From contig DAOQTX010000001.1 of the NCBI GenBank assembly GCA_035340715.1, positions 7,894 to 71,893 of the forward strand: DNA of 64,000 nucleotides, read 5' to 3'. The stretch comes from Bacteroidia bacterium (GTDB lineage: Bacteria; Bacteroidota; Bacteroidia; AKYH767-A; OLB10). Below, piece by piece: positions 24,314 through 51,359 of this stretch (the stretch's first letter is position 1; every line of letters begins with the position of its first letter). Below the pieces are notes generated by a model. The model ran no database searches. It was not told where the DNA came from and worked only from the letters and a program-made list of their open reading frames with translations. The position numbers and the translations under genes are program-made.

Positions 24314-25012
24314 ATGAACAAAGTTGTAGAAAACGCTCTTGAAGCCATTAAAGGAATAGAAAACAACATGACCATTTTGTTTGGTGGCTTTGGCCTCTGT
24401 GGCATTCCCGAGCACTGTATAGCGGAACTTCAAAAAACTGAAATCACCGGTTTAACTTGCATCTCAAACAATGCAGGTGTTGATGATTTTGGATTAGGAT
24501 TATTGTTGAAGAAGAAGCAAATAAAAAAAATGATTTCATCATATGTGGGAGAGAATGCGGAGTTTGAAAGACAAATGCTCTCCGGTGAATTGGAAGTTGA
24601 ATTGATACCTCAGGGTACTTTAGCTACTCGATGTTTGGCAGCAGGATACGGAATGCCTGCAATATTTACTCCAGCTGGTGTAGGAACAGAAGTTGCCGAA
24701 GGAAAAGAAATCCGGAACTTCAATGGAAAAGACTATCTCTTAGAATATGCATTCGATGCAGATTTTGCAATTGTAAAGGCATGGAAAGGTGATCCCCATG
24801 GGAATTTAATTTTCAAAGGCACTGCCCGAAACTTCAACCCACTTATGGCAATGGCAGGAAAGATCACCATTGCCGAAGTTGAAGAACTTTTACCTGCAGG
24901 AGAATTAGACCCAAATCAAATTCAGGTGCCGGGAATTTTTGTAAATAGAATTTTCAAAGGCGCATCTTTTGAAAAAAGAATTGAGCAACGAACTACATTA
25001 CCAAGAAATTAA
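24314..25012 (+). CDS. scoA: 3-oxoacid CoA-transferase subunit A
   Basis: CoA-transferase family I alpha-subunit motifs (FGGFGLCGIPE, glutaconate-CoA-transferase fold). Confidence 0.8.
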   Translation: MNKVVENALEAIKGIENNMTILFGGFGLCGIPEHCIAELQKTEITGLTCISNNAGVDDFGLGLLLKKKQIKKMISSYVGENAEFERQMLSGELEVELIPQGTLATRCLAAGYGMPAIFTPAGVGTEVAEGKEIRNFNGKDYLLEYAFDADFAIVKAWKGDPHGNLIFKGTARNFNPLMAMAGKITIAEVEELLPAGELDPNQIQVPGIFVNRIFKGASFEKRIEQRTTLPRN

Positions 25013-25016
25013 ACTT

Positions 25017-25679
25017 ATGGCATTAGATAAAAACGGAATAGCTAAACGCATTGCTAAAGAATTGAAAGATGGATATTATGTAAATCTGGGTATAGGCATA
25101 CCTACATTAGTTGCCAACTTTATACCCGATGGAATGAACGTAGTCCTTCAATCCGAAAACGGTTTATTGGGAATGGGCCCATTTCCATTTGAAGGAGATG
25201 AAGATGCTGACATCATAAATGCAGGTAAACAAACCATTACTACAGTAGCCGGATCAGCTTTCTTCGATTCGGCATTAAGTTTTGGAATGATTCGAAGTGG
25301 ACGAGTTGACCTAACCGTTTTGGGTGCAATGGAAGTAAGCGAAAATGGCGACATTGCCAATTGGAAAATACCTGGTAAAATGGTTAAAGGAATGGGAGGC
25401 GCAATGGATCTAGTAGCTTCGGCTAAGAACATTATTGTAGCTATGCAACACGTAAACAAAAAAGGAGAAAGTAAATTATTGCCGTCCTGTACTTTACCCA
25501 TTACTGGATTAAAATGCGTTAAGCGGATCGTAACCGAATTAGCCGTATTGGATATACTCCCCGAAGGAGGGTTTGCCTTATTGGAGAGAGCTCCGGGAAT
25601 TAGTGTAGAAGAAATTAAAAATGCAACAGCCGGGAAACTTATTATCCATGGAGAAATACCAGAAATCTCTTTAAATTAA
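25017..25679 (+). CDS. scoB: 3-oxoacid CoA-transferase subunit B. Start moved to ATG 25017; the ORF track starts at 24969.
   Basis: Typical beta-subunit N-terminus (MALDKNGIAKRIAKELKDGYYVNLGIGIPT). Catalytic Glu region (SENG). The 25017 start removes the overlap with scoA. Confidence 0.8.
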   Translation: MALDKNGIAKRIAKELKDGYYVNLGIGIPTLVANFIPDGMNVVLQSENGLLGMGPFPFEGDEDADIINAGKQTITTVAGSAFFDSALSFGMIRSGRVDLTVLGAMEVSENGDIANWKIPGKMVKGMGGAMDLVASAKNIIVAMQHVNKKGESKLLPSCTLPITGLKCVKRIVTELAVLDILPEGGFALLERAPGISVEEIKNATAGKLIIHGEIPEISLN

Positions 25680-26426
25680 ATGACCACTCAACCTGACTTT
25701 GTTTACAAAGAAATAGATAGCGAAGGGCATGATACCTTAGATGTAATCGCTTTGGCCGATAACTTCAATCGTTGGATGTACGACACGATACATCCTTTTT
25801 GCAAAGGTGATATTTTGGAGATTGGAAGTGGAACAGGAAATATTTCAACTTTCTTTCTCAATAACAACGAGTCCATATTTCTTTCGGATATTAGAGATTC
25901 ATATTGCGAAATTCTTCAGCAAAAGTTTAATACACATTCTAATCTACTAGGCGTTCAAAACATTGATTTAATCGACCCCCTATTTGATAAAAAATTTGAA
26001 AATCATTTGAATCGATACGATACTGTTTTTGCTTTGAATGTGGTGGAGCACATTGAAGACGATTTGTTGGCCATCGCCAATTGCAAAAAAATGCTCCGAA
26101 AAAATGGTCATCTCATAATCCTCGTACCTGCATATCAATTTCTTTACAATCGTTTCGACAAAGAATTGTTTCATTACAGAAGGTACAACAAGCAATCGTT
26201 GGCGTCATTGTTTTTAAAAAACAATCTTGAACTTAGAAAACAAATGTATTTTAATGCCTTGGGTATAGCGGGTTGGTTTGTCAGTGGCAAACTTATGCGA
26301 AAGAAAATTATACCAAAAGGACAAATGTCCTTCTATAACAAAATAGTCCCTATCGCAAAAATTCTTGATTTTGTGCTTTTAAAAAAGATTGGATTATCCG
26401 TAATTAGTATTGGTCGAAAAAGTTGA
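25680..26426 (+). CDS. Class I SAM-dependent methyltransferase
   Basis: Motif I ([12 protein letters not shown]). Post-I acidic residue. Motif II region ([10 protein letters not shown]). Confidence 0.6.
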
Positions 26427-26428
26427 AT

Positions 26429-28951
26429 ATGAAGTTCGAGAAACTATCAATTGTAATTCCTGCCTATAACGAAGGCAAAACCATTCATCTTATATTAGAT
26501 AAGATAAAACAAGTAGAGTTGTTGAATGGTATCTCGAAAGAAATTATCATTGTTAACGACTGCTCAACCGACAATACCAGTGAAGCTATTCAATCCTATA
26601 TGAAACAGAATGAGGCACTCAATATTCGACTTCATAATCAGGAATATAATCAGGGAAAGGGGGCTGCTTTACATCAAGGGATTAAACTGGCTACAGGCGA
26701 TTACGTTATTATACAAGATGCCGATTTAGAGTACGATCCTCAAGAGTATAATCTTTTGATTAAGCCGGTGTTGGATGGTTTTGCAGATATTGTTTACGGC
26801 TCAAGATTTTTGGGAGGAAATGCACATCGAATATTATTTTTCTGGCATACGATCGGGAATAAATTCTTAACCTTCTTGTCCAATATGTTCACTAATCTGA
26901 ATTTAAGTGACATGGAGACCTGTTATAAAATGTTCAGAAGAGATATTATACAATCGCTCGAATTAAAAGAAAAAAGATTTGGATTCGAGCCCGAAGTGAC
27001 TGCAAAGATTGCTCGTGTAAAAGATGTTAGAATTTATGAAGTGGGCATTTCGTATTATGGAAGAACTTTTGCAGAAGGCAAGAAGATTGGATGGAAGGAT
27101 GGTTTTAGAGCCATTTATTGTATTATTAAATACAACTTTCGCCATTTCCGGATTTTCAAACATTTCTCTTCTTTTATTATTGCACTTTGTCTGTTGATAG
27201 GTACAATGTATGCCTATAAAAACAGAGTTGTAGGATGGGATAAAGAACAATATAAAACCATCATCACTGCTGATGGACGAGGGTATTATCTTTACCTTCC
27301 AGCTATTTTCATCTATAATGACCTTCAATATTCATTTATTGAGCCCATTGAGAAATCACTCGGATATTCGCATTATGCAGCAGATTACTTAATTAATCTG
27401 GATAAAAAAAAAATTAATCTCTACCCTCTAGGACTTGCCATACTTTGGTTTCCTTTTTTTTTAATCGCGTACTTCTTAAGTTTTCTACTTGGCTTTCCAC
27501 TAGACGGCTATAGCTTTCTGTTCCAGGTTTCAATTGTAGGCGCTGCTTTATTTTATGTGGGCCTGGGTCTTATATTCCTAAAAAAACTAATTCGATCATT
27601 TATTCAGTCCGAAATTATTACCGGCTTCGCTGTTGGTTTTATTTTCCTTGCAACCAATCTGTTTTATTATACCACCATTGAATGCAGTATGACGCATGCA
27701 TATAGTTTTTCCCTAATTAGTATTTGGAGTTACCTTTTGTATTCATTGTCGAAAACATTTTCTTCCAAAAAAATGTTGCTCTCCGCATTACTTTTAGGTT
27801 TAATCTTTACCATTCGTCCATCCAATGTTTTTATATGTGCCTTTATTCCTTTTCTTGCCGGCACACCACAACTGTTTAGAAATTTAATTATAAAAGTTTT
27901 TTTTAGTGTTGGGAATCTCTTACGCGCTATACTATTTGTACTATTGGTTCCAATACTGCAAATGATATTTTGGAAAATTCAAAGCGGTAGTTTTTTTATA
28001 GATACTTATTCTCTTTTAAATTTATCCTTAGATTTTTCTAAACCGCATATTGGACAAATTTTAGTGAGTTATAGAAAAGGGCTTTTCGTTTACACGCCAA
28101 TCTTATTCATCTCACTGCTCGGTTTTATAAAACTATTCCGTTCCAAGAACTGGTTTTCGTTTATTTCTTTGCTTGTAGCACTATCTATTATTATTTATGT
28201 GGTTTCCTCTTGGCCTATTTGGTGGTATGGTGGCAGTTATGGAATGCGCCCCATGATAGATATATATGTTTTCTTTGGTTTGCTCCTGGCTTTTGCTTTC
28301 TCCTGGAAGTCTAAAGTTTTTAAAGCTCTCCTTATTGGAATGTGCAGCGTATTAATGGTCGTAAACTTTATTCAAATGTATCAATACCGAAGTTATATTA
28401 TGCATTGGATAGACATGAATAAAGCATCCTATTGGAAGATCTTTTTAAAAACTGACGATTCCTATAAAGGAATATTATACAATAAGAAAAACACGCTCGA
28501 AGTAGGAGATCGAAAAGAATTTGCACGATGGAAAAATTCCTTTGATGCAGAAAATGTTTGGGGCAATTCTCATACACTCTCTTCAGTGTACTCATCTTCA
28601 GCTCCAAATTCGGTTTTACTATCCACTATAAATACTTACAGCCCCACACTAATCATTCCACGATCAGATTTGGGAGATAGCACAGTGGTACTTCAGGTGT
28701 CTTGTAAAGTGATGGTAAAATCCAATCAACATCTTAGCAGTATTGTAGTATCTACTGAAGATGGGACCTCAAGCCTTTATTATGATGCTTTTGCATTAAA
28801 CTCTATAGCTCCATCCAATTCATGGAACGATGTATCGGCTAAATTCTTTGTGCCAAGAAAAGAATTAGAAAATGAATTTGTAAAGATATATTTCTATTGC
28901 ACCGAAGGTGAGTTGTATGTGGATGATGTTGAAGTGATCGGTTATCGATAA
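26429..28951 (+). CDS. Fusion protein. N-terminal GT2 (GtrB/DPM1-like polyprenol-phosphate glycosyltransferase), central polytopic membrane domain of about 11-13 TM helices, and a C-terminal beta-rich periplasmic domain of about 190 aa.
   Basis: GT2 motifs ([30 protein letters not shown]). Residues about 240-660 are nearly all hydrophobic helices. C-terminal 180 aa are soluble. ATG 26429 preferred over the ORF-track TTG at 26423. Stop TGA of the methyltransferase lies 3 nt before the start. Confidence 0.65.
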
Positions 28952-28956: not shown

Positions 28957-30936
28957 TTAATCAACTTCAATCTCATAAACTATTCCTTTTAAATCTTTTG
29001 ATGGAAATGGGATGTTATCTTGGTGATAGACCACCGGTGGCCACCATTCACCATAATGAAACTCCTGCGTAATCACCATCACCATTTGATTGTTTGGTAC
29101 CGAAGTTACTTCCGTGTTCATCTTACAGATCAATCGCATTTTATCCTTTGAAGGCCCTATACGCCAATTTATTTCTTCCGGCTTCCATTCAATCTCAAAA
29201 TAATAAAAATCACTTTTAAACAACTCATCCTCATTTTGAGGAGACCGTAAAGTTATGGCTTGATGATAATCATCCCATCGGTGTAAATTATAAATACCCT
29301 CTTTTGTACGGAAAGGGACAACTCCTTTTATATCTGTTTTTGGATCTCTGCAAGCCATATCCCAATTCGTACAGGCAACAATGATGTCTGAGTTTAATCT
29401 AGCATCCTCATTCGGATATTGACTATTGTTTCCGTAGGAAGTCTTCGGCCAATACTGACTCGTTTTAATAATCTCAAAATCTATCTCCGAATAATTTAAA
29501 GTTGGAACTCTTACGGATGCATCCATTTCTACATGCTTAGGAATATAGCCTTGATCAGAACAGACTCTCCTCTCATTCCACTTCGACTCCGATTGATACA
29601 ACAACCAAAATGCATTGGTCAATCCATTCCAAACATTATTGGAACTAAGCAATTCAGGAAACTTTATTTTAGCTCTGTAAGTTCCATACGTTAAGCCAAT
29701 GCGTGAAATAATTCCTACTTGTTCTTTTCGCTTATCCTTTCTTGATTGATTCCCCGGATTAGATAGTTCAATAGCATTTTCATTTTTAGCTACTGTCTTG
29801 CATGGGCAATCCGTTATATAAAAATGATCTTTCAATCTTTTATGATCCGGCCATTTGGAATACTCTTCAAACTGAGCATTCGACATATTCTCTCCAACAA
29901 CATCCATTGATGCATCAATGTTGTTAAAGTTCTTATCCTTATGAAGCATATGAAAATACTGTTCAAACAACGCATTTTGAAACAACTCTTTGTGATCTCC
30001 GCACTGCTCTGTGAAACAATGATCAGAGAATTCTTCTCCCGGATATTTAAAGCGATCTACATAAATGCCATTTGCTCCTGTATAACGTGCAAAAACACTT
30101 AGCTCTTCTTGGAAAGGAATCCAAACCCAATTGATTCCTGATTTTTCACTTTTAATAATACTCCATGGATTTATAAACTCTCCGGATGAGGACTTTTGGG
30201 ATAGAAAGAGGACACTGCTATCCAACTCCTGAAATGCGCCTTCATTAAAAACCAAAATCGAAAATTCATATGTTCCGGTACGAGGGTTTCGTTTCCATCG
30301 ATTGTTGATGCTTCCTTCATCTTCTTTTTGATTCGCCATATACACCGCATCCATGTGCAGCTGTTCACTTAAAGATCTTCCGGATTTGTTCGATTTTTCT
30401 TTAATAGAATTCAACCATTCCGGATTGGATTCAATTTCTTCGATATAGGATTTAATGAGTAGCTCTTTCTCGGCATGACTTAATTTTGTCCCACCATAAT
30501 ATTTTTCCTCGTTTCTAGGATTACCCATTATTCGAAGAGAATCTTTAATGGTAATGATTCCTTCATCTGGAATTTTTACTGAACGAACTTCATCAGGATT
30601 CTCCCATGAACCATAGAAATTTTCATGCGATAGAGGATCATTCTCTTCTAATTTATACTTCTTGTTTTGATAATAAACTTTATAGTAGATTATCTCATTA
30701 GGTGTCCCTTTTATATCTAAGGAGAATCTAATAAACCCCGGATCTTGATTATCAGAAGGAATCACAATTCCATTCTGAAATGCGTTGTTTAAATCCATCT
30801 CCAAACGATAGTTCCCTTCCTTAGGCATCATGCCTTCTAAAATGTGAACATTGCTTACTTCAAAATTTACCTCACTAAAATCACAAGCGGAAAGAAAAAG
30901 AAGTAGTGCAGAATATATACAACTCTTTAAATGCAT
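28957..30936 (-). CDS. Lipoprotein with a C-terminal GH16 (beta-glucanase/laminarinase-like) domain. Start corrected to ATG 30936; the ORF track starts at 30996.
   Basis: Lipoprotein signal (MHLKSCIYSALLLFLSACDF). GH16 catalytic motif ExDxE (SEIDFEII) with flanking jelly-roll signatures (GTYRAKIKFPE, FYYFEIEWKPEEINWRIG). The ORF-track N-terminal 20 aa are encoded by the terminator hairpin of the upstream gene and are rejected. Confidence 0.55.
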   Translation of the reverse strand: MHLKSCIYSALLLFLSACDFSEVNFEVSNVHILEGMMPKEGNYRLEMDLNNAFQNGIVIPSDNQDPGFIRFSLDIKGTPNEIIYYKVYYQNKKYKLEENDPLSHENFYGSWENPDEVRSVKIPDEGIITIKDSLRIMGNPRNEEKYYGGTKLSHAEKELLIKSYIEEIESNPEWLNSIKEKSNKSGRSLSEQLHMDAVYMANQKEDEGSINNRWKRNPRTGTYEFSILVFNEGAFQELDSSVLFLSQKSSSGEFINPWSIIKSEKSGINWVWIPFQEELSVFARYTGANGIYVDRFKYPGEEFSDHCFTEQCGDHKELFQNALFEQYFHMLHKDKNFNNIDASMDVVGENMSNAQFEEYSKWPDHKRLKDHFYITDCPCKTVAKNENAIELSNPGNQSRKDKRKEQVGIISRIGLTYGTYRAKIKFPELLSSNNVWNGLTNAFWLLYQSESKWNERRVCSDQGYIPKHVEMDASVRVPTLNYSEIDFEIIKTSQYWPKTSYGNNSQYPNEDARLNSDIIVACTNWDMACRDPKTDIKGVVPFRTKEGIYNLHRWDDYHQAITLRSPQNEDELFKSDFYYFEIEWKPEEINWRIGPSKDKMRLICKMNTEVTSVPNNQMVMVITQEFHYGEWWPPVVYHQDNIPFPSKDLKGIVYEIEVD

Positions 30937-30960
30937 TCCCAAATCTACACTTCTTCGATT

Positions 30961-30999
30961 AACAACAAAAATGGTCTGCAATTTCTTGCAGACCATTTT
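30961..30999 (-). terminator. Rho-independent terminator of the giant adhesin gene
   Basis: 14-bp perfect stem AAAATGGTCTGCAA / TTGCAGACCATTTT with loop TTTC. Followed on the minus strand by TTTTTGTTGTT. Lies 38 nt after the stop at 31037-31039. Confidence 0.6.
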
Positions 31000-31036: not shown

Positions 31037-34000
31037 TTATTGAAGAACAATTCTTACGATTTCACTATCACCATCAACATTAAGTTGAATCATATATACA
31101 CCTTTGCGCAATGTGCTAAAGTCGTAGTTGATTTGGTTCAATCCGCCATCGGCAATACCGCTGTGGCTATAAACCATCTTACCCGTCATATCCATCATGT
31201 GCATAGTGTACTGAGCTCCATATTCAGCATTAAACTGTAAGCTTAGCGATCCATCGGTTGGGTTCGGGAATGCCTTCACAGCCATTCCATCACCTAATCC
31301 GTGAGCAACTCTTGGAGGAGCAGCAGGACAAGTAAGCACACTGTTCTGTTGAACACCACCTGACCAACTTTGGTTGATCAATGCTACTGCATTTGAAAGT
31401 GCAGTTGCACTGTATGGTGAGCTACAACCTGCCAGTTTCTTATTAGCCTCAGCCAATATTTGATTTACGGTCATACCACTGAATGGCGCGTTTGCATAAA
31501 TCATATTGCCTAAGCTAACGGTGCTGGTAGGCGCAAAATTAGGATCATACTGATCAAACTTAACGTTCAATGTCAACGCTACCAATTCAGCAGCGAAAGT
31601 ATTGCTATACGTTGAGAATGTTGGATTCACCAAGTTAGCTGTCAATGACGCAGGAGATCCAGTACTTGGCAAGAACAACTTCACAGCCGTTACATTGGTT
31701 AACTGTAGTGACTTACCACCGGCACAGTACGAAGTACCACCAAGTGTTAAGTATGCAGGACCAGGGAATACCGCATTAAAGTTATTTGCTAAGTAGGTTC
31801 CGGCATTGCTTCCGTTAGGAGCTACATTCCAACCAGCAGTAGTTTCAGTTCTGAATCCAATACAGCTGTATGCAGGCTCAGTAATAACTACTGTTGCCGC
31901 TACAGTACAATTATTAGCATCGGTAACTACTACAGTATAAGTAGAAGCATACAATCCACTTGCAGAAGCAGTTGTTTGAGCAGGAACAGTGTTCCAGCTA
32001 TAACTGTATGGAGGAGTTCCTCCACCTACTGTAGCTGTAGCAGAACCATCACTTCCTCCAGGGAATGAAACGTTCGTCTGACTGGTGCTGATAGACAAGG
32101 CTGCAGGATTACTGATCGAGGCGCTGCACTGAGTACTACATCCATTCGCATCGGTAACAATAACTGTATAAGTACCACCAGATAATCCGCTTACAGAAGA
32201 CATTGTAGAGCCATTGCTCCAAGCATAGCTATATGGTGCAGTTCCACCACTTGCACTTACAGAAGCTGTTCCATCATTTGCTCCGTTACAGCTGATGTTA
32301 TTTTCAGCAACTGAACATACCAATTGATTTGGCTCTGTAATCACTACGCATAAGTATGCTGCACAACCTTTACCGTCAATTACATTGATTGTATATGGAC
32401 CGGCAACTAAGTCGGAACGATCTTCAGTAGTTGCACCATCATCCCAAACAAATGAGTATGGTGTAGTTCCACCGCTGATCACTATGTCAATAGTACCAGT
32501 GTTTCCACCGTTACAGTCGACATTTGTACCGGTTCCGCTGATCGACAATGGTGTTGCAGGCTGACTGATAATTACCAACATTGAAGCGGTACATCCGTTA
32601 GCATCTCCAACCGTTACGGTGTAGATACCAGCCGTCAATCCGGTAGCAGTTTGAGTAGTTTGAATTGGCGCTGTGCTCCAGTTATATGAGTAAGGAGCAA
32701 CTCCACCACTCACATGAACTGTAGCGTTTCCGTTATTTCCACCAAAGCAACTGATATCGGTCTTAGTTACTGATAGTGCTATTGCATCCGGCTCAGTTAA
32801 AGTAATCTGAGCTGCAGCAATACAAGTTCCATCATCAACAGTAACTGTGTATGTACCCGCTGTTAATCCAGTGATATCTTCAGTGGTTGCACCATTACTC
32901 CATAAGTAGGTGTATGTGCCGCTTCCACTAACTACCGTCAGATTCACAGAACCATCAGTACCACCATTGCAACGGATATTATATCCACCTGCATAAACTG
33001 GTGAAGCAATATTCAACGCTAGGTTACCATTGTTAGGCATAATTACACAATGAACAGTAACACAACCATTTTCATCGGTTACAGTTACATAATTAGCACC
33101 TGCCGGTAAACCGGTAGCTGTTGCCGTTGTTTGAACCGGGTTGGTATTCCATGCATAGCTGTATGGTCCACTTCCTCCGGATACACTCACTTGAGCTGAT
33201 CCGTTGGCTACACCACAACCTGCTACTTGAAGTATTGAGTCAACTACAACCATTGGTGCAGGCTCAACAACTTCAATGCTATCTTGTGCAATACATCCAT
33301 TTGCATCGCTTACTGTTACATAGTACCAACCTGCAAGCAGATTACTGATTACATTTTGGTTTCCTCCAGTGCTCCAGCTATAAGAGTATGGTGAAGTTCC
33401 ACCACTAACAATTACACCTGCGCTACCGTTGCTGTATCCATTGCAGCTAACATCAGTCTTGCTCATGGCAAGAGATAATGCAGCAGGCTCGTTTACAACA
33501 CCAGATAATTCAAGAGTACAACCTGTTGAATCGGTAATGGTAACCGTATATGAACCTCCGGCTAATCCACTAGCATTCTGAGTCGTTTGACCATTGCTCC
33601 ATGCAAAGCTGTAAGGCATAATACCACCACTTAAGTTGGTAACCGCTAATGAACCATCGGCAGCACCATTACATGATACATGCGTTGGAACCAAAACAGC
33701 TGACAATGAAGCAGGTTGATTTACAACTACAGTACACATTGTAGTACAACCATTTGCATCAGTCACCACTACAGTGTAAGTACCAGCTGCAAGGTCAGTA
33801 GCAATTGCATTGGTTTGGATCGGGCTGGTATTCCAGCTATAGCTGTATGGAGCCTGACCACCAAACACATTTACAGTTGCAGTACCATTAGCCTGACCAC
33901 AATATGCAAACGTACAAGAAGTGTTGCATGTAAATGGTGCAGGTTCAGTTATCTGAACAGATCCATTAATGCTACATCCGTTGGCATCGGTTACCGTTAT

Positions 34001-37000
34001 AAAATAAGTACCGGCAGCCAATCCACCTGCCATAGCGGTAGTTTGACCATTGCTCCACAAGTAAGTATATGGCTGTGTGCCTCCACTTACATTAGCAGTA
34101 GCATGTCCGGTAGCAGCACCGTAGCAGTTGTTGTCAACCTTATTGATATTTAATGCCAATGGCATTGGTTCATTAATAACAGCAATGCAAGATGTAGAAC
34201 ATCCACTAGCATCAGTAATGGTTACGGTATAAACACCAGCTCCCAGTCCAGTTGCAGTTGCAGTGCTTTGGAATGGTGCAGTATTCCAGTTGTATGAATA
34301 TGGAGGAGTTCCACCATTAACAACAACAGTAGCTGAACCATCTTGATATCCATTACATGTTACATTAGTTGTAGAAGAAATAGAGCAGCTTAAGTTACCG
34401 GTTTGACCGATAATAACTACATCTGCATTCACACAACCATTTGCATCCGTAACGATCACGTTATAAACACCTGCTGCCAATCCGGTAGCCGTTGCATAGA
34501 ACTGACCATCAGACCATAGATAAGTATAAGGACCTACTCCACCTGTAGCGGTTACGGTAGCAGAACCATTATCCTGTCCACAACTTGCGTCAATTCCAAC
34601 AGTACTTAATAGTAATGCTGCAGGCTCTGTAACTGTTATGCTAGCATTAACTACACAACCATTCACATCAGATATGGTAACACTGTATGTACCGGCTCCA
34701 ACACCACTTAAGTCTTCGGTAGTTGCTCCGTTGCTCCATACAAAAGAGTATGAAGGAACTCCACCACTAACGGTTAAGTCAATTGCACCGGTTAAGTTTC
34801 CATTACAGTCAACATTAGTTACTGTATATCCATAATTCAACTGAGTAGGTTGACCAATTTTAACACAGCATACTATGCTACATCCTAGAGAGTCAGTTAC
34901 TGTTACATAATATGTACCAGCAGCCAATCCTGTTGCAGTAGCGGTAGTTTGTACCGGAACTGTATTCCAAGCATACGTATATGGAGCACCCACACTATAT
35001 GGAGTACCACCACTTACATTGGTTGTTCCACTTCCATCAGCACTACCAAAGCAAGTAGGAGCAACTACAGTAGAGTCAACACATACAAGTGCTGAAGGCT
35101 CAGTTATTACAATACTTGCAGATGCAGTACATCCAGAGAAATCTTGAACTATTACTGTATACACGCCTGCCACTAAGTTTGTAGCTGTTGGAGTATTCTG
35201 AAGATTATTCCATAAGAACATGTATGGAGCTGTTCCACCACTAACACTTACGGTAGCAGAACCACTGTTACCGCCATTACAAGCTACATTCGAACCACTG
35301 ATGTTCAATAACATTCCTGCAGGCTCATTTACGGTCACCTGACAAGTAATACTACATCCATTGGCATCGGTAATGGTAACGGTATGAACTCCGGCTGCAA
35401 CTAAATTAGCAGTAGCTGTTGTCGCTCCATTGCTCCACAAGTAAGATAGAGCACCTGTTCCACCTACGGCAGATACAGTTACTTTACCATCGGAATATCC
35501 ATTACAAGATACATGATCCAATACTGAACAATTCGCAATAATCTGACTTGGGTCAATGATCTCTACTTCTTCAGTAGCGGTACAACCACCTGCATCGGTA
35601 ACAGTAACGGTATAAACACCGGCTATTAATCCAACTGCAAGATCAGTTGTTTGACCATCGCTCCACAAGTAGCTATAAGGCTGTGTACCACCCACCGGAA
35701 CAGCTAGAGCTGAACCATCGTTTCCACCGAAACATGATGGGTTTACTGAAGGATCAATATCTACCTGTAAAGTACCAGGCTGACTGATCACTACATTCGC
35801 CATTTCATTACATCCATTTGCATCAGTAACGGTAACAACATACACACCAGCCGTTAATCCGGTTGCTGTAGCTGTTGTTTGACCATTGCTCCACAAGTAA
35901 CTGTACGGTGCGGTTCCTCCTTCTGCCAATGCAGTTGCAGAACCCAATCCACCATTACATGGAATGTTTACTACGTTAATCATTGTAACCACTAAAGCAC
36001 TGTCTGGCTCGGTTACTTCAATGCTATCCTGAGCAGAACATCCTACAGCATCTGTTACCGTAACAGTATACATACCAGCAACTAAACCAGTGGCAGTTGC
36101 AGTATTCTGTGGAGGTACTGTATTCCATAAGATTGTATATGGAGGTGTTCCACCTGATATTGTTGTAACAGAAGCAGTACCATTGTTACCACCGGTGCAA
36201 CTTACACTGGTTGTTGACAATGCACCTATCACAATTGAATTAGGTTGATTTACTATAATTCCACTTACTACTATAGAACAGTTGTTGGCATCCGTTACCG
36301 TTACGCTGTACGATCCGGCTACTAATCCACTAGCTGTTTGTGTCGTCTGACCATCGCTCCATAAGTAAGTATAAGCTCCGGTTCCACCCACTGGGAATAC
36401 TGTAGCTGATCCGTCATTGCCACCATTACAAGTGGTATTCACCACAGAGAATGTAGCTGTTATTGCAACCGGTTCGGTTACTGTAACATCACATACTGCA
36501 GTACATCCATTGGCATCGGTAACTACTACAGTCCAAACACCTGTACTTAAACCTACAGCCGTAGCTGTTGTTTGAGCAGGATTGGTATTCCATAAGTAGC
36601 TTAGCTGACCAGAACCACCGGTAGCAACAGCTGTAGCCTGACCATCATTTCCACCATTACAGCTTACGTTATTATCTACACTGCATGATAAGTTAATTGC
36701 AGGAGGCTCTGGAATAACCACAGTACAACTGGTATTACAACCATTAGCATCCACCACTATTACGGTATAAGTACCCGCAGGTAAACCTGTTGCAGAAGCA
36801 GTAGTTTGAACCGGGTTTGTACTCCATATATACATATAAGGACCCGTTCCACCATTTACATCTATACATGCTGCTCCATCGTTAGCTCCAAAACAACTTA
36901 CCGGCTGGAAGCACTGATTGTTTACAGAACAACTTAATGAGCTAGACTGAGAAACAGTCACTGCACACTCAGAAGTACAACCTTTAGCATCGGTAACCAC

Positions 37001-40000
37001 GACTGTATAAGTTCCGGCAGCAAGGTTGGTTGCTGTAATCGCTGTTGAACCATTGCTCCATAAGAAGCTGTAAGGAACTACACCACCCGTTGGGAATACA
37101 GAAGCCGATCCATCGTTTCCACCACTACAGCTTGCGGCTGTGCTGCTCGAACTACAGTTCAATGCAGGAGGCTCGTTAACAATGATGGTAGCATATATGA
37201 TACACTTCTTACGATCTTTAACCGCCACAGTATAAACACCTGCAGATATGCCGGTTAAATCTTCTGTGGTTGCTCCATTGCTCCAAGTATATCGATATGG
37301 ACCATTTTGGTTATGAGGGGTTCCACCGGTAACAGTAAGATCAATTGATCCATCGCTTCCTCCGTTGCACGATACATTAGTTACAATATACAATGCCACC
37401 ATTTGTGGAGCGGAGTTTATGGTTACGTTACGTGAACGTGTACAACCATTTGCATCGGTCACCGTTACTTTATAAGTACCTGCAGGCATACCAATGATAT
37501 CCTGAGTGGTTGCACCTGTGCTCCATAAATAGGAGAATGGAGAGGTACCACCTACCGCTTTAACTTTAGCAATACCATCCGATCCGCCATAACAGCTCAC
37601 ATTCTTCTTACGAACAATGTTGATTACGATTTCAGCAGGCTCATTGATGGTAGTTGTTACTGCTTGAGTACAACCATTTGCATCGGTAACTACTACAGTA
37701 TAAGCACCTGCAGCTAAGCCGGTTGCTGTAGAAGTGGTTTGAACAGGATTGGTACTCCAGCTATAGCTATAAGGAGGAGTTCCACCAATGGCTAAGGCTT
37801 GTATTGATCCATCACTTAAACCATAGCAGCTTACATCATTTGGAATGGTAAATACTGCTAAAGGTGAAGGCTCAGTTACGGTAACCACGGAAATATGGAT
37901 ACAACCATTCGCATCTGTTATAGTCACCGTATAGTTTCCGGCTGACAATCCACCAACCGTACTTGTTTGAGCACCATTGCTCCACAAATAGCTATAAGGA
38001 GGTGTTCCGCCAACTGGAATTGCAGTTATTGAACCATCTGATCCACCGGCACAACTTACATTAGTTACCGAAGAAGGACAGATACAACTCAATGCTGTAG
38101 GCTCCGTAATAGTCCATGACATCGATGAACTACATCCATTGTCATCGGTTACTGTTACGGTATAAACACCAGCTGGTAATCCGGCAACACTTTGAGTTGT
38201 TTCACCGGTATTCCAATCAAATAAGTATGGAGATACACCACCGCTAACAACAACAGAAATACTTCCGTTGGTACCACCATTACAACTTACATTAGTAGCT
38301 GTACCGGCAATTACAATCGCTGATGGTTCACTAACAATGATGGTTTGTGTATGAACACAACCACTGGCATCGGTAACGGTAACGGTATATGATCCAGCTG
38401 ATAAACCACTGTTTGTTGCAGTCGAATTACCATTTGACCAAATGTAAGTATATGGAGCTACTCCACCTGTTACATATAGTTCGATAATACCATTGTTCGC
38501 ACCATTACATACAAGATCGGTTACTACCTCATTCAATGCGATGGCATCAGGCTCGGTAACTGTACCATTTACCTGGTAAGTACAACCATTCGCATCGGTT
38601 ACTATTAAGGTATAACTACCTGCACATAAATTGTCTGCAACATTAGTTGTTTGAGCAGGGTTGGTATTCCATAAATATGAATATGGAGGTGTACCACCGC
38701 TGATATTTACAATCAACTTGCCATCACATGCACCATTACAGCTGGCATTCACCACTGACATGGTATGCGTAAAGGCAGGAGGATTAATCAATGAATAAGA
38801 ACCTAATTTCACACAACCGTTTGCATCGGTCACGGTAACAACGTAGGTACCGGCAGTTAAGCCTGTAGCCGTAGCTGTTGTTTGACCATTGCTCCATAAG
38901 TAAGTATATGGTGCTACACCACCCTGAGGAATTGCAACAATAGATCCATTAGATCCACCGAAGCATGATGGGTTGGTAAGTGTCGCTTGCAATTGCAATA
39001 ATGAATCCGGTTGTATTACCTGAGCTACCACATAGTGTAAGCATCCTAATGAATCGCTCACCGTAATGGTATAGGTTCCGGCACACAATCCGCTGGCAGA
39101 CGAAGTGGTTGCTCCGTTCGACCATAAGAAGTTATATCCGCTTCCTGAACTGTATGGTGTTCCACCGCTAACTGCTAATGAAATTGAACCGTTACATGTT
39201 CCATGACAAGCAGGGTTAACAACCGTTGCTACTACTTGCATCTGAGCAGGCTCAGCTATTAAGAAGCAAACAACCGTATCACAACCAACTGCATCGGTTA
39301 TGGTTACACAATAGATGCCTGATGACAAGCTATCCGCATCTTCATCCGTTGCACCATTGCTCCATAAGTAAGTGTATGGACCAACTCCACCGCTTACAGC
39401 AACACTGGCAATACCGTCACCACCGCCAAAGCAGCTTACGTTTACTACTGTTTTACCAACCACAATTTGTGGGTTGCTTAATATATCTACAGCGGTTTGG
39501 TAGGTACAACCATTAGCATCGGTAACCGTAACGGTATAGGTACCTGCTGTTATATTAACAAGGTCTTCAGAAGTGGCATTATTGCTCCATAAATAAGTAT
39601 ATGGAGGTGTTCCACCTGAAGGAGTAATGTCTATCGATCCTGAAGCATCACCATAGCAAACTACATCTACATGAGTTTCTGTAGCTGATACCGGCAATGG
39701 CTCACCAACAAATGCACATGCAGGGAATGATGAACACTGTGGTGGAGGATAGCTGTTGGTATTTGCTTTATCGGTTACCACTAAGCAATAGTTGCCAGTA
39801 GGTAGTCCTGTGATTAAATCAGATCCTAAGAAACTGATGGTATCACGTATTAAGACGTTATTGTTATCATACCACTGGTAGCGATATGGCGGCACACCTA
39901 AGAATGCCAAGCCGGTAATTGAACCGCTCGGATCACCCGCACAAAGTGCAGAGGTAGGTATGGCAACGGCTACCGGAGCATCAATGAAGTTTACATTGGC

Positions 40001-43000
40001 AATTCCGGAAGTTGCGATACAACCACCAAAGTTAGGTGGGAAGTAAACCGTTACCTGGAATAATCCAACTCCTACTGTAGTGAAAGTACTATCAGGACTA
40101 GGACCAAAGCCCCAATCGAATAAAGTACCAATTGGCCATCCACCAGGATAGTTAACCGGATCGGAAGCAACTAAGGTTACTGATCCACCGGTACAAACCG
40201 TAGTATCGTCTGGTGAAATAATAGGTTGAGGCACAGCTACAGGAGAAACGCTAATAGAATCTTGTGCTGTACAACCGGTAATATTATCTGTCACGGTTAC
40301 TACAAATGTAGTTGGACCATTCAATACCGCATTAGCGGTTTGCTGATTTGGATTAGAGAATAATCCGGCAGGAGCCCAGCTATAGGTTACACCACTTGGT
40401 GCAAACTGCCATCCTTCATTGGTAGCCGACCAGCTATTGTTCGCATTGCGACCTGGAACTACTTCGGCTAAGGTACCATTTGAATTCTCAATACCTAAGG
40501 TATGGTTGCCACCATCGGTGGTCATTTGCGTAATGTGAACCTGAATAATATTGGATCCTTCACTCAAAACAATTTGAGATGTCATTGGGCTACCGCCACC
40601 TCCAAAGTGAGGAATAGCATTGAAGTTAACTACCAATTTTTGATTGGGCGAAATACCGGTAGTGAAATAATCAATCGTTCCACCAGCACCAGGGTTAAAG
40701 TCTTCCCATGGGAAGGTAATAATATTATTTGGAGTGCCTGCACCAGGCAATAAACCACCGGTACAACATCCGTTAGGAGCAGCCAGATCAAAGGATATAA
40801 ATCCATTGGAGGCAATTACAAATTGGCTGTATGAATTACCATAGAAACCAAAGTTAAATCCTATAGGCAATGCAGCACTGGTTTGATCGTCACCCAAAGT
40901 AACAGCAGTACCCACACCGGCTATCGGTGCAAATGGTACGGATGATACCTGATAAGTGGTTCCAAACGGAGAGGTTCCACTTGCGCTCAATTGAATTGAG
41001 TCACCGGCACAAACTACCGCAGGAACAGCATTTATGGCTGTAACCGATGGTAAGGCATTTACTACAACAGTAATAGTGTCTGAACTCTGACAAGAATCAG
41101 GAGTTGTAGGATCTATACCATAAACAATATAAGTAGTTGTTTGCGTAGGACAAACATTAACCGTTTGACCAATTAAATTACCCGGCTGCCAGGTATATTG
41201 ATAGTTTGTATTTAAGCTATTTGCAGAAAGATCGGTACACTCGCCTAAGCAAAGGTCAGAATCGATTGCACTTGCTGTAATATCATCAGCAGGAGTTGAA
41301 ACTGCAACTACCATTACACGACCAGATTCACAAGCGCCACCCGAACCGGCAAAAGGTAATGTCATACCCGGATTGGTTGCATTTATACTTGTAGTTTGAA
41401 TTGCGAAGTCGTTTAAATCATTATTATCCGAAGTACCATTTCTTGATAAGCTCAATCCTGCATTTGCAGTTGTAGCATCAATACCATTTCCTGTCCATGC
41501 AGAAGCAGGAGCAACAGGGTTACTTGGATTGCCGGGTATGTTTATGCTCATACCGGCAATATTTGCTGAAGGCCAGTTCCAAATAACAAAATCTCTGATT
41601 GCACCGGTATTATCCATCAAAATAGCCCATCCGGTAAATGAAGGGAATGACCCAGGATTCCAGAACAAATTCGATCCCCAAGGATTAGTAACTCCATCAG
41701 TCCAGAACATGGTTTGACCCGGAGCAATAGTACCTGATAGAACCTGAACGGTTGCATTGACAAAATTAATGTCTGTATAACTGTCACTTACTGCAAGTCT
41801 CCAACCTGTTACATCAACTGCTGAGCCACTTACGTTTTGAATCTCGATTTGATCTGTTCCACCTAAATCGGCCTCTGTAATTAAAATTGCAGAGGAGCCT
41901 GCTTGATTTCCTGAACCGCTTATCAAGGTGTCAATAGCAGCCACGTAGAATGTATCGGTACCGGTAATAATTGGGTTAAATGGAGAACCATATGCTAAAG
42001 GCGTTCCGCCACTGGCTTCATCATACCATACAATTGGGAACCCATTACTGGTAGCAGTTAAGTTAACAGCACCGATACCACAAATTGTATCTCCTAAGGA
42101 TGATAATATTTGAGGAGCAGATATATCAACTTTTAATATGTTAGAATAAACAGTGTCTTGACAATATGCTTTTAGTCTGTACCAAGTCATACTGCTAAGC
42201 GTATCGGTTTCATAGAAAGAACTATCCGCTCCGCTAATATCAGAGAAGTTAATACCATCATTAGAAATTTGCCATTGCAACATTCCCAATGTTGCAGTAG
42301 AAGTGAATGAGGTTACACCACTATAACATAATACTGAATCTCCTACGAAAGAAATTGCCGGAGCTTCAGGGAATGTAGAAACTACTACTACCACATTGCT
42401 GCTCGCGGTACAACCACTCGCAGGATCGGTTACGGTAACAAAGAAGTTCTCGGTACCTAATGTAGTTGCCGTAAAGGTTGGGTTTGCAATATTTGGATTG
42501 TCCAAATTAGCCGCAGGTGACCATGAATAAGTTACTGCTCCACCAGTTAATCGCATGCTCGGACGGAATTGCTGCAAAGCACCTGTTAAATCGGCACATG
42601 GATCGGCATTGTCTGAACGGAAGGTATTACATGCCGGAGTAGCGGTCATAAATACCAAGTCAAAAAATGAGGTTGTAGCATTTGCGAAACAAGTATTGAT
42701 AACCACATCAGATACTCCATCCCACATGAATGGCGTGCTGAAGTTCATGGTGTTCCAACCCAATACAGTACTTACATTACCTGTAAACACAGTAGTAAAT
42801 CCGGCTGTTTGATAGGTTGTAACAGCAAAACATCCATTTGGAGAAGCATGCGCCATACTGATAGTAAATCCGGTATAAGGCTGCGTACTTAATTTATTGG
42901 AAACATTGAATGCTAATGAGCTTATTTGACCAGGTCCTAAAATGCCTGCTGCATTTAATTCTGATGCTCTGATTAGAATTTGTGAACGCTGAGTTAAGTT

Positions 43001-46000
43001 TGCACCGTTAAATATTTGTCCGGTAACTAAGCCCGGATCTTGCCCGCCACCTATCGTAACCACACTGCTCTTAGAGGCCACAGCATTTAATTGCAATCCA
43101 TTACCGATACAAACGGTATCTACCAATGGAATATCTATGCTAACTAAAGGAGCAGGATTTACCGTAATGGTAACTGAAGCGGTATCAATGCAACCACCAC
43201 CACTAGCTGTAACAATATAGGTAGTCGTAACGGTTGGGGTAGCAGTAACGCTGGCACCACTGGTAGCACTTAAGCCTGCAGCTGGTGACCATGAGAAGCT
43301 GGTCCATGAAGGATCGCCACCGGCAGTCAATACCACGTTTGCCTGATCGCAAGCCGAAGTTGAACCGCTAGGGGTAATGCTCAATGGAGGTGCAGGATCT
43401 ACCTGATAATTAGCTATACATGCTTGAGAGAAACATCCATAAGAAACATTCCAATTATAGAATAATCCGAATGTAGTACTACCAAAAATTGTAGGAGCAG
43501 CAGGAGGAATATGAGATCCATATCCGTTAATCAATATCTGGAAAGGAATCTGATAAGGAGCACCGGCTGCTACGGTACCATTTTGATGTACCAATAAGTT
43601 AGGGCTGGTAACAATACGCATACGGTATTGATTTCCTTTAGGTACAAACCAGTTTAAGTTAACGGTTTGCACGTTGAAAGGAGGATTCACTGAAGTGTTG
43701 GTAACGGTAGTAACACCACTCACCAATCCACCTAAATTATTTCCGGCACTGTCTTGTAATTGTATAGCATAAGGTGAACCAATAGGTCCGTTAGGGATAA
43801 TATCAACCGTGTTGATACGAAGACCATTATCGGATAATACCGAGAATACCATATACTGCTGTGTAGTTGGGAAATAACCCACACCGGCTGTTGGGTTCGA
43901 TACCGGATCGTAACCAATTTGAGCAGGTGTAGCACCCGGATCTTCAACCACGTAGGCTGACCCACTGCTGAATACATAAGGACTATAGTTATTACCCGTA
44001 GCAACCACAGGACCACCAATAGTATCGGTCCATAACAGAGTACCACCCGAACCAACAGCACTTAAATTAACCGTACCCTGACCACAAATGGTATCGCCTA
44101 AACAAGCAGGCGCTGCAGGGGTTGGCAATGCCGTAACCAAGATTGAGTCTTGAGAAGTACAACCATTGTTATCGGCTGTAACTACATAATACGTATTTCC
44201 TGAAGGAGGCGTAGCTTGTACGTTTGCTCCGGTAGCAGGGTTGGTAGCTGGCGACCATGAATAAGTGATTGTGCCAGACCCTGAAGGAGTTCCCGGGAAT
44301 ACTACGTTATTAAAATTACAAGTAGCAGCTCCAAATAAATTATCGGAACTGGTCATTGTAAATCCAAATACATCGCCATTGCTTACTGCAATTGAAGCTG
44401 AACTGCTTTGAACCAAACCACCTCCGGTATTATATCCGGGTACATTTGTACGTATTCCATTTAAGTAATATTGAGGAAAATCGAAATTAGCCCCATCAAC
44501 AGTTGAATATTGCCAATCGAAGGTAACAAAACCATTTGCATTGATCACATGAATTACATCAATACTTGTATTACCTGTTCCACCATCACTTGAATTCATA
44601 TTCAAATCAGATGAGGTATGAAAGTTAATAGTTCCTAAATCACCGCTCGTATGTTGTTCTGTCCATGATACTGGTACATAAGTGCCTGTGAATCCATTGG
44701 TAGGAGGTGTACCACCCGATAAAATAGCAGAAGCACTCAGATTAATAACTGTATTTTCACAGAACACAGATTGATCTGCCGTTACAGAAGTAATTATAGG
44801 AGTACTACCAACATTGATCACAACGGTATCGGTATTCACACAACCGGTGCTTGTATCGGTACCGGTTAAAATATAGGTTGTGGTTACCGAAGGAGTTGCA
44901 ATTACAGGTGTTCCTGAAGTTGCACTCAAACCTGCGGCAGGGGCCCAGCTATATTGATAGTTGGGGTCGTTCGTACTGCTTGCACTTAAAGTAGCTGAAC
45001 CTATACCATCGCACAATTGCGTAGTGCTGGCACTTATATTTACATCATCTGCAATGCCCGGTATTACTGTTACCGCTAAGCGGTTAAGTGAAGAACATCC
45101 CGAACCCGGGTCCACTTCTTGAGCATACCAGGTTTGTGTTCCGCAAGCATAAGGAGTTACTAAAGGAGAACCGGTACCTATTAAGTTACCACCTGTTGGG
45201 GCATCGTACCATTCTAAATTACCACCATTAACAGGTGTAGCATAAATATTGGCTTGTCCACAACCACAAAATACATTCGTAACGCTATCCAATGTTGGTG
45301 TAGGCAATGCAGGAATAACATTAACTATGGTAGTATCCGAAGCCGAACATCCATTCAAATCGGTTACGGTTAAGGTATAAATAGTAGTGGTTGTTGGAGA
45401 AGCAACCGGATCGGCAATGGCATTGTTGTTTAACGATGCCGCAGGTTGCCAATCGAATGTTAAGTTTGGATCTCCGAATGAATAATCTACTTTTCCATAA
45501 AAGTTTCGATTTGCAATACTGGATGTTAATGTTCCACCCCATCCTGAATACATTGTTATAGTACCATCACTTCCTAAATTAGTTGCACAACCTGAACCGG
45601 TTAAATAAGCAACGCTTTGTCCACCTAATGCAAAAGAATAGGTAGCTCCCGGAGGAATGGTTACATTCAAATCAACAGGTATTAAAGTGTAATTAATTAC
45701 TGAAGGTGGAGTACTTGTACCACCAGAAACACAAGCAATATTCGAAGCAATAAGCGTCCAATTTGCATCTGTTGACACATTGGTTGGATAAGAACAGGCC
45801 ATTGAAGAAGTTCTCAAATAAACCGACTCTGTTAAATTAGTACCTAAAGTAGCAGTACTATTAAAGTATAAATAGTTTATAGTAATAGGGAAGGCAGAAT
45901 TATTCTGTATTTCAAAACCAACAGCGGCAGAACTATTAGTTGTTCCTACAGGAGTGGCATTAAAGGTTCCACTGATAAAGTTATTCGCATGTAGTGTAGT

Positions 46001-50420: not shown

Positions 50421-51359
50421 TTACTGAAGGACGATCTGCCCTTTTGCAAGCTCTTCCCACAACTGCTCAATACCTTGCTGTAGAGAAATTTTGTGTTTCC
50501 ATCCCAATTGATGAATGCGATTTACATCCAACAATTTTCGCGGAGTGCCATCGGGTTTCTCGGTATTGAATTTTAATTCTCCATTATAAGCACTGATGTT
50601 TTTAATCATCAATGCCAAATCTTTTATACTTATATCTTCTCCTGTTCCTACATTTATAGTTTGTGCATCGTTGTAATGCAGCATTAGAAAATAGCAGGCA
50701 TCAGCCAAATCATTTACATGTAAAAATTCTCTTTTGGGTGTTCCGCTTCCCCATATCTCAACGAATGATTTTTCTTCTTCTTTGGCTTGAAAAAATTTTC
50801 GCAACAATGCCGGAAGTACATGAGAATTATTCAAATCATAATTATCATTTGGCCCATATAAATTGGTTGGCATTGCTGAAATAAAATTGCATTGGTATTG
50901 AAGACGAAACGCTTCGCACATTTTCAAACCGGCAATCTTTGCCAATGCGTAAGGCTCATTGGTAGGTTCCAATGCTCCGGTGAGCAAGTATTCTTCTTTG
51001 ATGGGCTGCGCACTCATTTTAGGATAAATGCAAGACGAACCAAGGAACAATAGTTTCTTAACCTTATGCTCATAGGCTTGTCGGATCACATTACATTCAA
51101 TCATCAGATTGTCGTAAATGAAATCGGCACGGTAAACATTATTGGCATGAATGCCTCCAACTTTAGCCGCAGCTAAAAAAACATAATCGGGTTTTTCATC
51201 GCTAAAAAGTTTTTGCACCGCTGCCTGATTGCGCAAGTCACACTCTGTTGAAGTGCGTGTGATAATGGTATTGTAACCTTCGCTTTTCAGTTTCCGAATC
51301 AATGCCGAGCCCACCATTCCCCGGTGACCGGCTACATATATACGATCGCTTTTATTCAT
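50421..51359 (-). CDS. fcl: GDP-L-fucose synthase (GDP-4-keto-6-deoxy-D-mannose 3,5-epimerase/4-reductase)
   Basis: Typical N-terminus (RIYVAGHRGMVGSAL). SDR catalytic YxxxK region. Sits directly downstream of gmd. Confidence 0.85.
   Translation of the reverse strand: MNKSDRIYVAGHRGMVGSALIRKLKSEGYNTIITRTSTECDLRNQAAVQKLFSDEKPDYVFLAAAKVGGIHANNVYRADFIYDNLMIECNVIRQAYEHKVKKLLFLGSSCIYPKMSAQPIKEEYLLTGALEPTNEPYALAKIAGLKMCEAFRLQYQCNFISAMPTNLYGPNDNYDLNNSHVLPALLRKFFQAKEEEKSFVEIWGSGTPKREFLHVNDLADACYFLMLHYNDAQTINVGTGEDISIKDLALMIKNISAYNGELKFNTEKPDGTPRKLLDVNRIHQLGWKHKISLQQGIEQLWEELAKGQIVLQ

Follow-up and report, generated by a model that had tools for sequence, protein, structure and literature searches.

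The 64,000-nucleotide (nt) stretch of the Bacteroidia bacterium contig DAOQTX010000001.1 analyzed here (the window) encodes an 840-residue protein that is probably a bifunctional envelope glycosyltransferase, derived from the fusion of adjacent operon genes and uniting in one chain the two enzymes of a GtrB/GT-C-type periplasmic pathway (Table 1). The protein joins an N-terminal GT2 domain of the polyprenyl-phosphate (Pol-P) sugar synthase type to a polytopic membrane domain with a predicted GT-C fold and to a C-terminal beta-jelly-roll resembling carbohydrate-binding modules (CBMs). An initial annotation, made from the letters alone, had proposed such a single-polypeptide fusion while allowing that the two halves might prove to be separate genes in a corrected assembly. 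The fusion is real: the open reading frame (ORF) has 840 intact codons, and the identical product is present on 11 contigs of metagenome assemblies, four of which were viewed (ENA ERZ27257434 and ERZ27257442; JGI 3300009690 and 3300025861) and carry the same neighbors. Since the ORF is identical in independent assemblies, joining of the halves by an assembly or frameshift error was ruled out. The ORF list also offers an alternative TTG start at 26423, two codons upstream of the ATG. All motifs quoted in the initial annotation were found in the translation, namely IPAYNEG (residues 10 to 16), DCSTDNT (44 to 50), QDADLEYDP (96 to 104), and a 23-letter first-loop motif (269 to 291). Conservation was read from two alignments of 51 sequences each, one of fused (A1) and one of standalone (A2) homologues, with the query included in both. 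The AlphaFold2 model of the full protein had an overall pLDDT of 81.9 and was confident for residues 1 to 680.

Sequence and fold both place the GT2 domain in the Pol-P-sugar synthase group, as had been suggested for residues 1 to 230. Pfam PF00535 (Glycos_transf_2) spans residues 7 to 175 (E value, 1.5e-33). The best matches among PDB sequences were Pyrococcus DPMS (4e-18), GtrB (1e-12), and ArnC (7e-12), in agreement with a profile search, and Foldseek ranks 1 to 25 were taken exclusively by DPMS, GtrB, and ArnC. The nearest NCBIfam models were AglJ, PgfS, ArnC, PpgS, and the haloarchaeal dolichyl-phosphate hexose transferase. None of the equivalog cut-offs was reached (AglJ scored best, with 109 bits versus a cut-off of 325), and therefore no specific orthology can be claimed for this domain. 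Both aspartates of the DAD motif, D97 and D99, are conserved in at least 90% of A1, where Arg126 is invariant. The latter aligns with Arg117 of DPMS, an assignment that assumes a 22-residue tag offset in the numbering of the 5mlz chain. In the Pyrococcus enzyme, Arg117 binds the phosphate of the dolichyl-phosphate acceptor together with R131 and S135 (PfDPMS, PMC7185993).

The membrane domain appears in the model as a helical polytopic block spanning residues ∼246 to 654. Structure comparison of this block revealed a GT-C fold, with ∼340 to 350 residues aligned at only 7 to 12% identity and with ALG12/ALG9 (GT22), ArnT (GT83), and PMT (GT39) as the best matches. In addition, 6 of the 51 fused homologues matched Pfam PMT_2 directly (best E value, 3.9e-8), and the NCBIfam model for the putative glycosyltransferase LA_3751/LA_3752 gave a subthreshold match (26 to 29 bits versus a cut-off of 200). 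The GT-C resemblance suspected in the initial annotation is thus supported by the modelled fold and by the PMT_2 matches, though the domain falls in no curated GT-C sequence family: neither the query nor its standalone relatives belong to one in Pfam or NCBIfam (CAZy was not searched directly), and the standalone relative P0121 has no Pfam match at all. The acidic first loop, also anticipated, is conserved. It carries the family signature DGxGYYxYLP, whose Asp282 is invariant in A1 and A2 and lies 14 residues past the first transmembrane (TM) helix of the model (TM1, residues 246 to 268). Loop 269 to 334 holds short helices in the model, as does the first extracytoplasmic loop of GT-C enzymes, and we take the site of Asp282 to be the position of their catalytic acid. 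Asp282 would be a candidate catalytic base on the extracytoplasmic side. Within the signature, Y286 is also invariant in A1, as are G285 and L290 in A2. Elsewhere in the domain, H423, Y527, G551, Y555, W595, and R607 are invariant in both alignments, and R463 is invariant in A2 and conserved in at least 90% of A1.

Topology was assessed by the positive-inside rule, using lysine and arginine contents averaged over 100 homologues. A hydropathy scan gave 10 peaks, and DSSP applied to the model suggested 12 helices. Loops 355 to 362, 417 to 422, and 594 to 606 are free of or poor in these residues, and loops 385 to 395, 442 to 448, 478 to 493, 572 to 575, and 625 to 629 are rich in them, the two classes alternating strictly from residue 355 onward. 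By this charge pattern, H423, R463, the conserved loop 520 to 557, W595/R607, and the C-terminal domain are predicted to be periplasmic. For the family pattern to hold, the chain must cross the membrane an odd number of times between TM1 and residue 385, which requires either that segment 278 to 297 (containing the hydrophobic DGxGYY) spans the membrane or that one of the helices 335 to 354 and 363 to 384 does not. Both solutions would keep Asp282 in the periplasm, with 11 or 13 crossings. The earlier estimate of about a dozen TM helices was roughly right, and the count is narrowed here to these two values.

The C-terminal region, described earlier as some 190 soluble, beta-rich residues, is indeed beta-rich but is not one block: a domain of ∼145 residues is preceded by a linker of ∼40. 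Residues 650 to 840, modelled separately with the 50 homologues sharing that part, reached a pLDDT of 90.5 and formed a nine-strand beta-sandwich starting at about residue 697. The best structural matches of this predicted CBM-like beta-jelly-roll were a porphyran-binding CBM from a type IX secretion system (T9SS) protein (score, 12.7) and CBM22 (12.3 to 11.7), followed by CBM16, CBM4, CBM6/35/36, and CBM61 (11.7 to 9.3), all at 7 to 17% identity. Residues 655 to 840 had no match in Pfam, CBM models included, and the domain is thus placed in no defined CBM family. Analogous domains of the CBM type, likewise periplasmic, are present in AftD and EmbA-C.

Table 1. Features of the fusion gene and of its immediate neighbors (window coordinates)
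Feature	Residues	Position	Strand	Basis or remark
Whole fusion gene, GT2 + GT-C + CBM-like	840	26429..28951 (stop codon included)	+	Stop-free translation, same product on 11 contigs
Cytoplasmic GT-A/GT2 domain, Pol-P-sugar synthase type (DPM1/GtrB/ArnC-like)	1-235	26429..27133	+	
DxD (DAD) metal/nucleotide-sugar motif of GT2	D97-A98-D99	26717..26725	+	Aligned to DPMS and GtrB DAD
Arg126, aligned to Pyrococcus DPMS Arg117	126	26804..26806	+	phmmer alignment to 5mlz
Polytopic membrane domain, predicted GT-C fold, 11 or 13 crossings	236-654	27134..28390	+	
Family signature DGxGYYxYLP, first extracytoplasmic loop, Asp282 candidate catalytic base	281-291	27269..27301	+	
Partly helical linker, last TM helix to beta-sandwich	655-696	28391..28516	+	Model secondary structure
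Beta-jelly-roll, CBM-like, predicted periplasmic	697-840	28517..28948	+	
Class I S-adenosylmethionine (SAM) methyltransferase	248	25680..26426	+	Pfam Methyltransf_12/23/11/25
Lipoprotein with cryptic GH16-like region, convergent neighbor	679	28957..30996	-	Lipobox LSAC
SprB-like giant ORF	6052	31037-49195	-	LTD, Ig_7, SprB, Por_Secre_tail domains

The origin of the gene is best read from a split counterpart in a Vicingus sp. metagenome-assembled genome (MAG; loci L005/L063), where a methyltransferase (248 residues), a standalone GT2 (240 residues), and a GT-C protein carrying the CBM-like domain (707 residues) follow one another, the last two genes overlapping by 4 nt. The three products are 64, 80, and 37% identical to their window counterparts, the GT2 being compared with residues 1 to 235. 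The window protein is colinear over this junction. In L005, the GT2 ends ...CIIKYNMFQ at its stop codon and the GT-C protein starts MITFIKNKLSIVSLVI... (MITF...), where the window reads without interruption through ...CIIKYN into FRHF.... Locus L007 keeps the upstream synteny of the window (PBP1a and CoA-transferase A and B), but there two separate membrane genes come after the GT2. From the split relatives, the colinear junction, and the kept synteny, the window gene is thus a fusion of two neighboring, translationally coupled genes. In two further loci (L024, 3362 to 7731; L075, 5080 to 9512), one small GT2 precedes two tandem GT-C+CBM paralogues, an arrangement that suggests one synthase feeding several transferases.

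Whether such a fusion is unusual, as first annotated, depends on the level considered. A whole-protein search was dominated by Bacteroidota proteins of ∼660 to 780 residues that contain both the GT2 and the membrane domain without the C-terminal one (31 to 47% identity across 66 to 84% of the query), and 62 of the 119 other best full-length matches combine a GT2 with the query's membrane family; joining a GT2 to a GT-C domain is thus in itself common in the phylum. Many other Bacteroidota matches, of ∼720 residues and among P0056 to P0120, share the GT2 alone (same subfamily, 57 to 74% identical) and have a different membrane domain of ∼480 residues, undetected by the profile of the query membrane domain; a few of them carry PMT_2, and P0059, P0061, and P0062 add a C-terminal domain related to the query jelly-roll. 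In a search with residues 236 to 840, however, the closest proteins were standalone ones, of which those of 560 to 707 residues match as much as 99% of the query, jelly-roll included, and those of ∼430 to 450 residues match its membrane part only. An exhaustive search with the membrane domain yielded 5,688 representatives (50% identity) at an E value of ≤1e-3 and 1,681 at ≤1e-30; among the best 150, the match starts at residue 2 to 50 in every case, and these proteins are therefore unfused. None of the best 80 loci in the genomes of GTDB species, nearly all of them Bacteroidota MAGs, is fused either, a count from a scan with one peptide pattern that neither the fused clade nor the query matches and that thus undersamples fusions. 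In 9 of these loci, a GT2 immediately precedes the gene in the same orientation, and a GT2 match occurs elsewhere within 6 kb in another 12, three of them weak. The fusion is accordingly unusual for this GT-C subfamily but not for GT2-GT-C proteins in general.

The query membrane domain shares up to 42.5% identity with standalone proteins (median, 35 to 36%) and up to 33% with the other fused proteins (median, 28%). A neighbor-joining tree without support values grouped it in a clade of eight with seven standalone proteins that carry the CBM-like domain, and fused proteins formed about nine separate groups in the same tree. With the split counterpart of L005/L063, these comparisons indicate that the window fusion is recent and independent; other Bacteroidota lineages carry GT2-GT-C fusions of their own.

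The genes flanking the fusion are those initially described, a SAM methyltransferase directly upstream and a lipoprotein followed by a giant adhesin-like protein downstream. The methyltransferase stop codon (TGA, 26424 to 26426) ends 2 nt (26427 to 26428) before the ATG of the fusion. Its best NCBIfam match, UbiG (E value, 2e-7), is uninformative. A methyltransferase gene also lies near the system in L015, L016, L039, L063, L089, and L095, and in L005 it immediately precedes the split GT2. Moreover, four proteins of ∼465 residues (P0089, P0107, P0114, and P0116) combine an N-terminal domain of the same GT2 subfamily with a class I methyltransferase domain, which provides a second Rosetta-stone link, tying the upstream methyltransferase functionally to the sugar synthase. 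The lipoprotein accompanies the system within the closest clade: an orthologue (665 residues, 40% identical) lies beside the split system in L005/L063, and the family also occurs in L015 and L017. The window member had no Pfam or PDB sequence match above threshold; it contains an EIDFEI motif reminiscent of the catalytic motif of GH16 and a GH16 match at an E value of only 0.009 (subthreshold). Among its 934 homologues, three match PF00722, and those listed are nearly all of ∼650 to 690 residues and are unnamed or annotated as hypothetical proteins. Recurrent neighbors of this family are DPM1-like GT2 genes, methyltransferases, GT-C-like genes (including DUF6311), Wzy_C, and MBOAT+AlgX pairs. 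MBOAT genes, mostly paired with AlgX-domain genes (the polysaccharide O-acetylation type), were seen within a few kilobases of the GT2, GT-C, and lipoprotein genes, for example at positions 1 to 1934 of L005 and 7319 to 8728 of L011.

The remainder of the window was also surveyed. A polysaccharide biosynthesis and export locus occupies positions 50421 to 63415, with minus-strand genes for a GDP-fucose synthase-like epimerase and a GDP-mannose 4,6-dehydratase, and further with genes for a Wzz/tyrosine-kinase protein, an ABC exporter, a UDP-GlcNAc 2-epimerase, a FemAB-like protein, an NAD-dependent epimerase, and a GT4, as well as two ORFs without a Pfam match. This locus could supply the fusion enzyme or be its target. 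The giant ORF has a GC content of 0.41 to 0.45, compared with 0.34 to 0.39 in the rest of the window. GldH and typical Bacteroidota housekeeping genes are also present. The ORFs of the two CoA-transferase subunits (24314 to 25679) overlap in the ORF list (TTG start at 24969, end at 25012), an ordinary start-codon ambiguity, as database calls start the second subunit later (220 residues).

With these neighbors, the acceptor is most likely a glycan, that is, a surface or periplasmic polysaccharide, a lipopolysaccharide-type molecule, or the glycan of a glycoprotein. We regard as unlikely the alternative that the same chemistry serves a protein acceptor, i.e., PMT-like O-glycosylation of secreted or T9SS cargo such as the adjoining 6052-residue protein, whose domain content would make it a T9SS-secreted SprB-like adhesin. 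Besides this adjacency, a Por_Secre_tail gene follows the split system in L005, and PorZ lies beside two fused homologues. In addition, PMT, TMTC, and TMEM260 are GT-C enzymes that act on proteins and have lectin-like or repeat domains. However, T9SS-type genes are not adjacent to the system at L007, L009, L011, and L013, the recurring neighbors are glycan related (GH16-like lipoprotein, MBOAT+AlgX, Wzy_C), and the C-terminal domain is similar to CBMs that bind polysaccharides. Bacteroidota have many T9SS cargo genes, so that adjacency is weak evidence for a protein acceptor. The two PorZ neighborhoods (L010, 1892 to 9271; L012, 5001 to 11803) also contain recO and a further PMT/PMT_2 GT-C gene, and they may owe their likeness to gene order kept between related genomes and not to a link in function. 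The idea that T9SS cargo is glycosylated, raised in the initial annotation as conceivable, has therefore gained nothing beyond adjacency, and the conserved neighbors point rather to a glycan substrate.

The analysis itself shows the three folds, the conserved residues, the relation between split and fused genes, and the conserved neighbors. The reaction scheme that we infer, which covers the enzyme activities, the sugar, the acceptor, and the role of the methyltransferase, would start at the cytoplasmic face, where the GT2 domain would attach a single sugar, donated by a nucleotide sugar, to undecaprenyl phosphate (Und-P), by homology to DPM1, GtrB, and ArnC. Methylation of the lipid-linked sugar, or of its precursor, is probably the cytoplasmic task of the cotranslated methyltransferase; SAM is cytoplasmic, and methylation before flipping is therefore the most economical option. 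The lipid-linked sugar would then arrive at the outer leaflet, a step for which no flippase is encoded nearby. There, the GT-C domain would take it as donor, with Asp282 as the putative catalytic base and with the acceptor probably held or positioned by the periplasmic CBM-like domain. Indirect support for such donor use on the extracytoplasmic side comes from fusion or adjacency to the synthase and from the charge pattern of the loops. The fusion would set donor synthesis beside donor consumption and anchor the GT2: standalone GT2 relatives have no TM helix, and fusion therefore would also solve their membrane anchoring, as seen in Mycobacterium tuberculosis Ppm1 next to the split Ppm1/Ppm2 of Mycobacterium smegmatis (PMC3485146) and in GacI/GacJ and WpsA/WpsB (PMC10821137).

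Several findings weigh against this bifunctional enzyme. No GtrA-family (PF04138) flippase was found among the scanned ORFs of at least 100 residues of the window or among the called genes of eleven distinct related loci; it may be encoded elsewhere in the genome. The notion of a self-contained periplasmic glycosylation machine accordingly goes beyond the data, as a flippase step is still needed. More doubtful than a protein acceptor is the bolder version of that notion, in which the GT-C domain or the domain interface itself flips the Und-P-sugar and the unit, in concert with the methyltransferase, the GH16-like lipoprotein, and the MBOAT/AlgX enzymes, builds a Bacteroidota surface glycan, methylated and acetylated, that is as yet undescribed. 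Within the GT2 domain, the phosphate-binding R131 and S135 of DPMS are replaced by H140 and N144, which are conserved in their own right (N144 invariant and H140 in at least 90% of A1) with neither being identical to the DPMS residue. Together with NCBIfam equivalog scores far under the cut-offs and a Wzy_C gene in one related neighborhood, this leaves a slim chance that the domain is instead an ordinary or processive GT2 acting on an Und-PP-oligosaccharide or polymer, with the membrane part as a polymerase, ligase, or export channel (cellulose/hyaluronan synthase or Wzy/WaaL type). Pol-P glycosyltransferases nevertheless rank ahead of every other GT-A protein by both sequence and fold, and the QxxRW motif of processive GT2 synthases was not seen on reading the translation. 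As for the membrane domain, the query has no Pfam match at an E value of ≤1 outside the GT2 families, and a family profile built from 51 homologues retrieved no GT-C chain from the PDB sequences, so that the GT-C status rests on the predicted structure and on the weak PMT_2 and LA_3751 matches. A naive count of 12 helices would further put the C terminus in the cytoplasm, a topology that we rejected because each of the short loops beyond residue 355 would then break the positive-inside rule. Finally, 59 of the 80 closest genome loci have no GT2 within 6 kb, which indicates that the GT-C family can do without a linked synthase. The slimmest chance of all is that the polytopic domain is inert, serving only as anchor or activator of a TM-less synthase whose lipid-linked sugar is used by other GT-C enzymes: the split GT2 relatives are indeed TM-less proteins of 240 to 251 residues, additional PMT_2 genes often lie near fused homologues, and precedents exist in the Ppm1 domain D1/Ppm2 (PMC3485146) and in GacI/GacJ and WpsA/WpsB, where the synthase likewise depends on its membrane partner (PMC10821137), but the predicted periplasm-facing D282, H423, Y527, G551, Y555, W595, and R607 are invariant in fused and standalone proteins alike (R463 nearly so), the full GT-C fold and the CBM-like domain are retained, and most members of the membrane family have no adjacent GT2 and so a function of their own.

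The bifunctional enzyme proposed here is reminiscent of the three-component systems GtrA/GtrB/GtrC, ArnC/ArnE-F/ArnT, CsbB/GtcA/YfhO, and GacI/GacK/GacL, which likewise pair a GT2 Pol-P-sugar synthase with an extracytoplasmic GT-C transferase, and the synthase and transferase genes are adjacent in the closest relatives of the window protein. Unlike in these systems, both parts form one polypeptide in the window, no GtrA/SMR-type flippase gene lies near it, a methyltransferase is a conserved extra partner, and the GT-C part falls in none of the curated GtrC, YfhO, ArnT, and PMT_2 models. ALG12/ALG9, ArnT, and PMT, too, have an acidic residue in their first extracytoplasmic loop, and they use Pol-P-monosaccharide donors, as predicted for the window protein, whereas the query is 7 to 12% identical to them, matches none of their Pfam models, and has a C-terminal jelly-roll in place of the MIR or ArnT periplasmic domains; to our knowledge, DGxGYYxYLP also differs from their motifs. 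Mycobacterial AftD and EmbA-C differ in being much larger, in not being fused to a donor synthase, and in belonging to a different sequence family. The Haloferax volcanii Agl pathway, which provides the best NCBIfam match of the window GT2 domain (AglJ), comprises Pol-P-sugar synthases (AglJ/AglD), an outer-face Dol-P-sugar transferase (AglS), and a SAM methyltransferase acting on the lipid-linked sugar (AglP). It is, however, an archaeal N-glycosylation pathway of separate proteins, the AglJ match stays far below its cut-off, and nothing in the window system points to a protein acceptor. A fusion of comparable logic is Mycobacterium tuberculosis Ppm1 (Rv2051c), in which a TM-less Pol-P-mannose synthase is joined to a polytopic partner with six TM segments and whose halves are the separate operon ORFs Ppm1 and Ppm2 in Mycobacterium smegmatis (PMC3485146). 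Both fusions thus link a TM-less polyprenyl-phosphate synthase to a polytopic domain and are split in related species, but the membrane domain comes first in Ppm1 and the GT2 first in the window protein. The Ppm1 partner domain resembles apolipoprotein N-acyltransferase, not GT-C. Flavobacterium psychrophilum FpgA, a type-2 glycosyltransferase of 319 residues with WcaA among its listed similarities, was dismissed as not comparable. No description of a GT2-GT-C fusion was found in the full-text literature searched, whose incomplete coverage makes this absence of evidence only.

As far as seen, neither the architecture nor the unmodelled GT-C family nor the conserved neighborhood has been described, and the chemistry is the expected one. 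The finding thus extends known biology rather than overturning it, as it concerns a known pathway of two steps that has been fused in nature and not a new kind of machine. The pairing of Pol-P-sugar synthases with GT-C transferases is usually guesswork, whereas fusions and their split relatives give it directly, here for a large and mostly Bacteroidota family that has no Pfam model matching the query and whose database names are no more specific than "glycosyltransferase" or "hypothetical protein." Having both active sites in one polypeptide is convenient for asking how a lipid-linked sugar moves from the cytoplasmic to the periplasmic site and whether this requires a flippase of its own. Collectively, the methyltransferase, the GH16-like lipoprotein, and MBOAT/AlgX may outline an uncharacterized envelope-glycan pathway in gliding, T9SS-bearing Bacteroidota.

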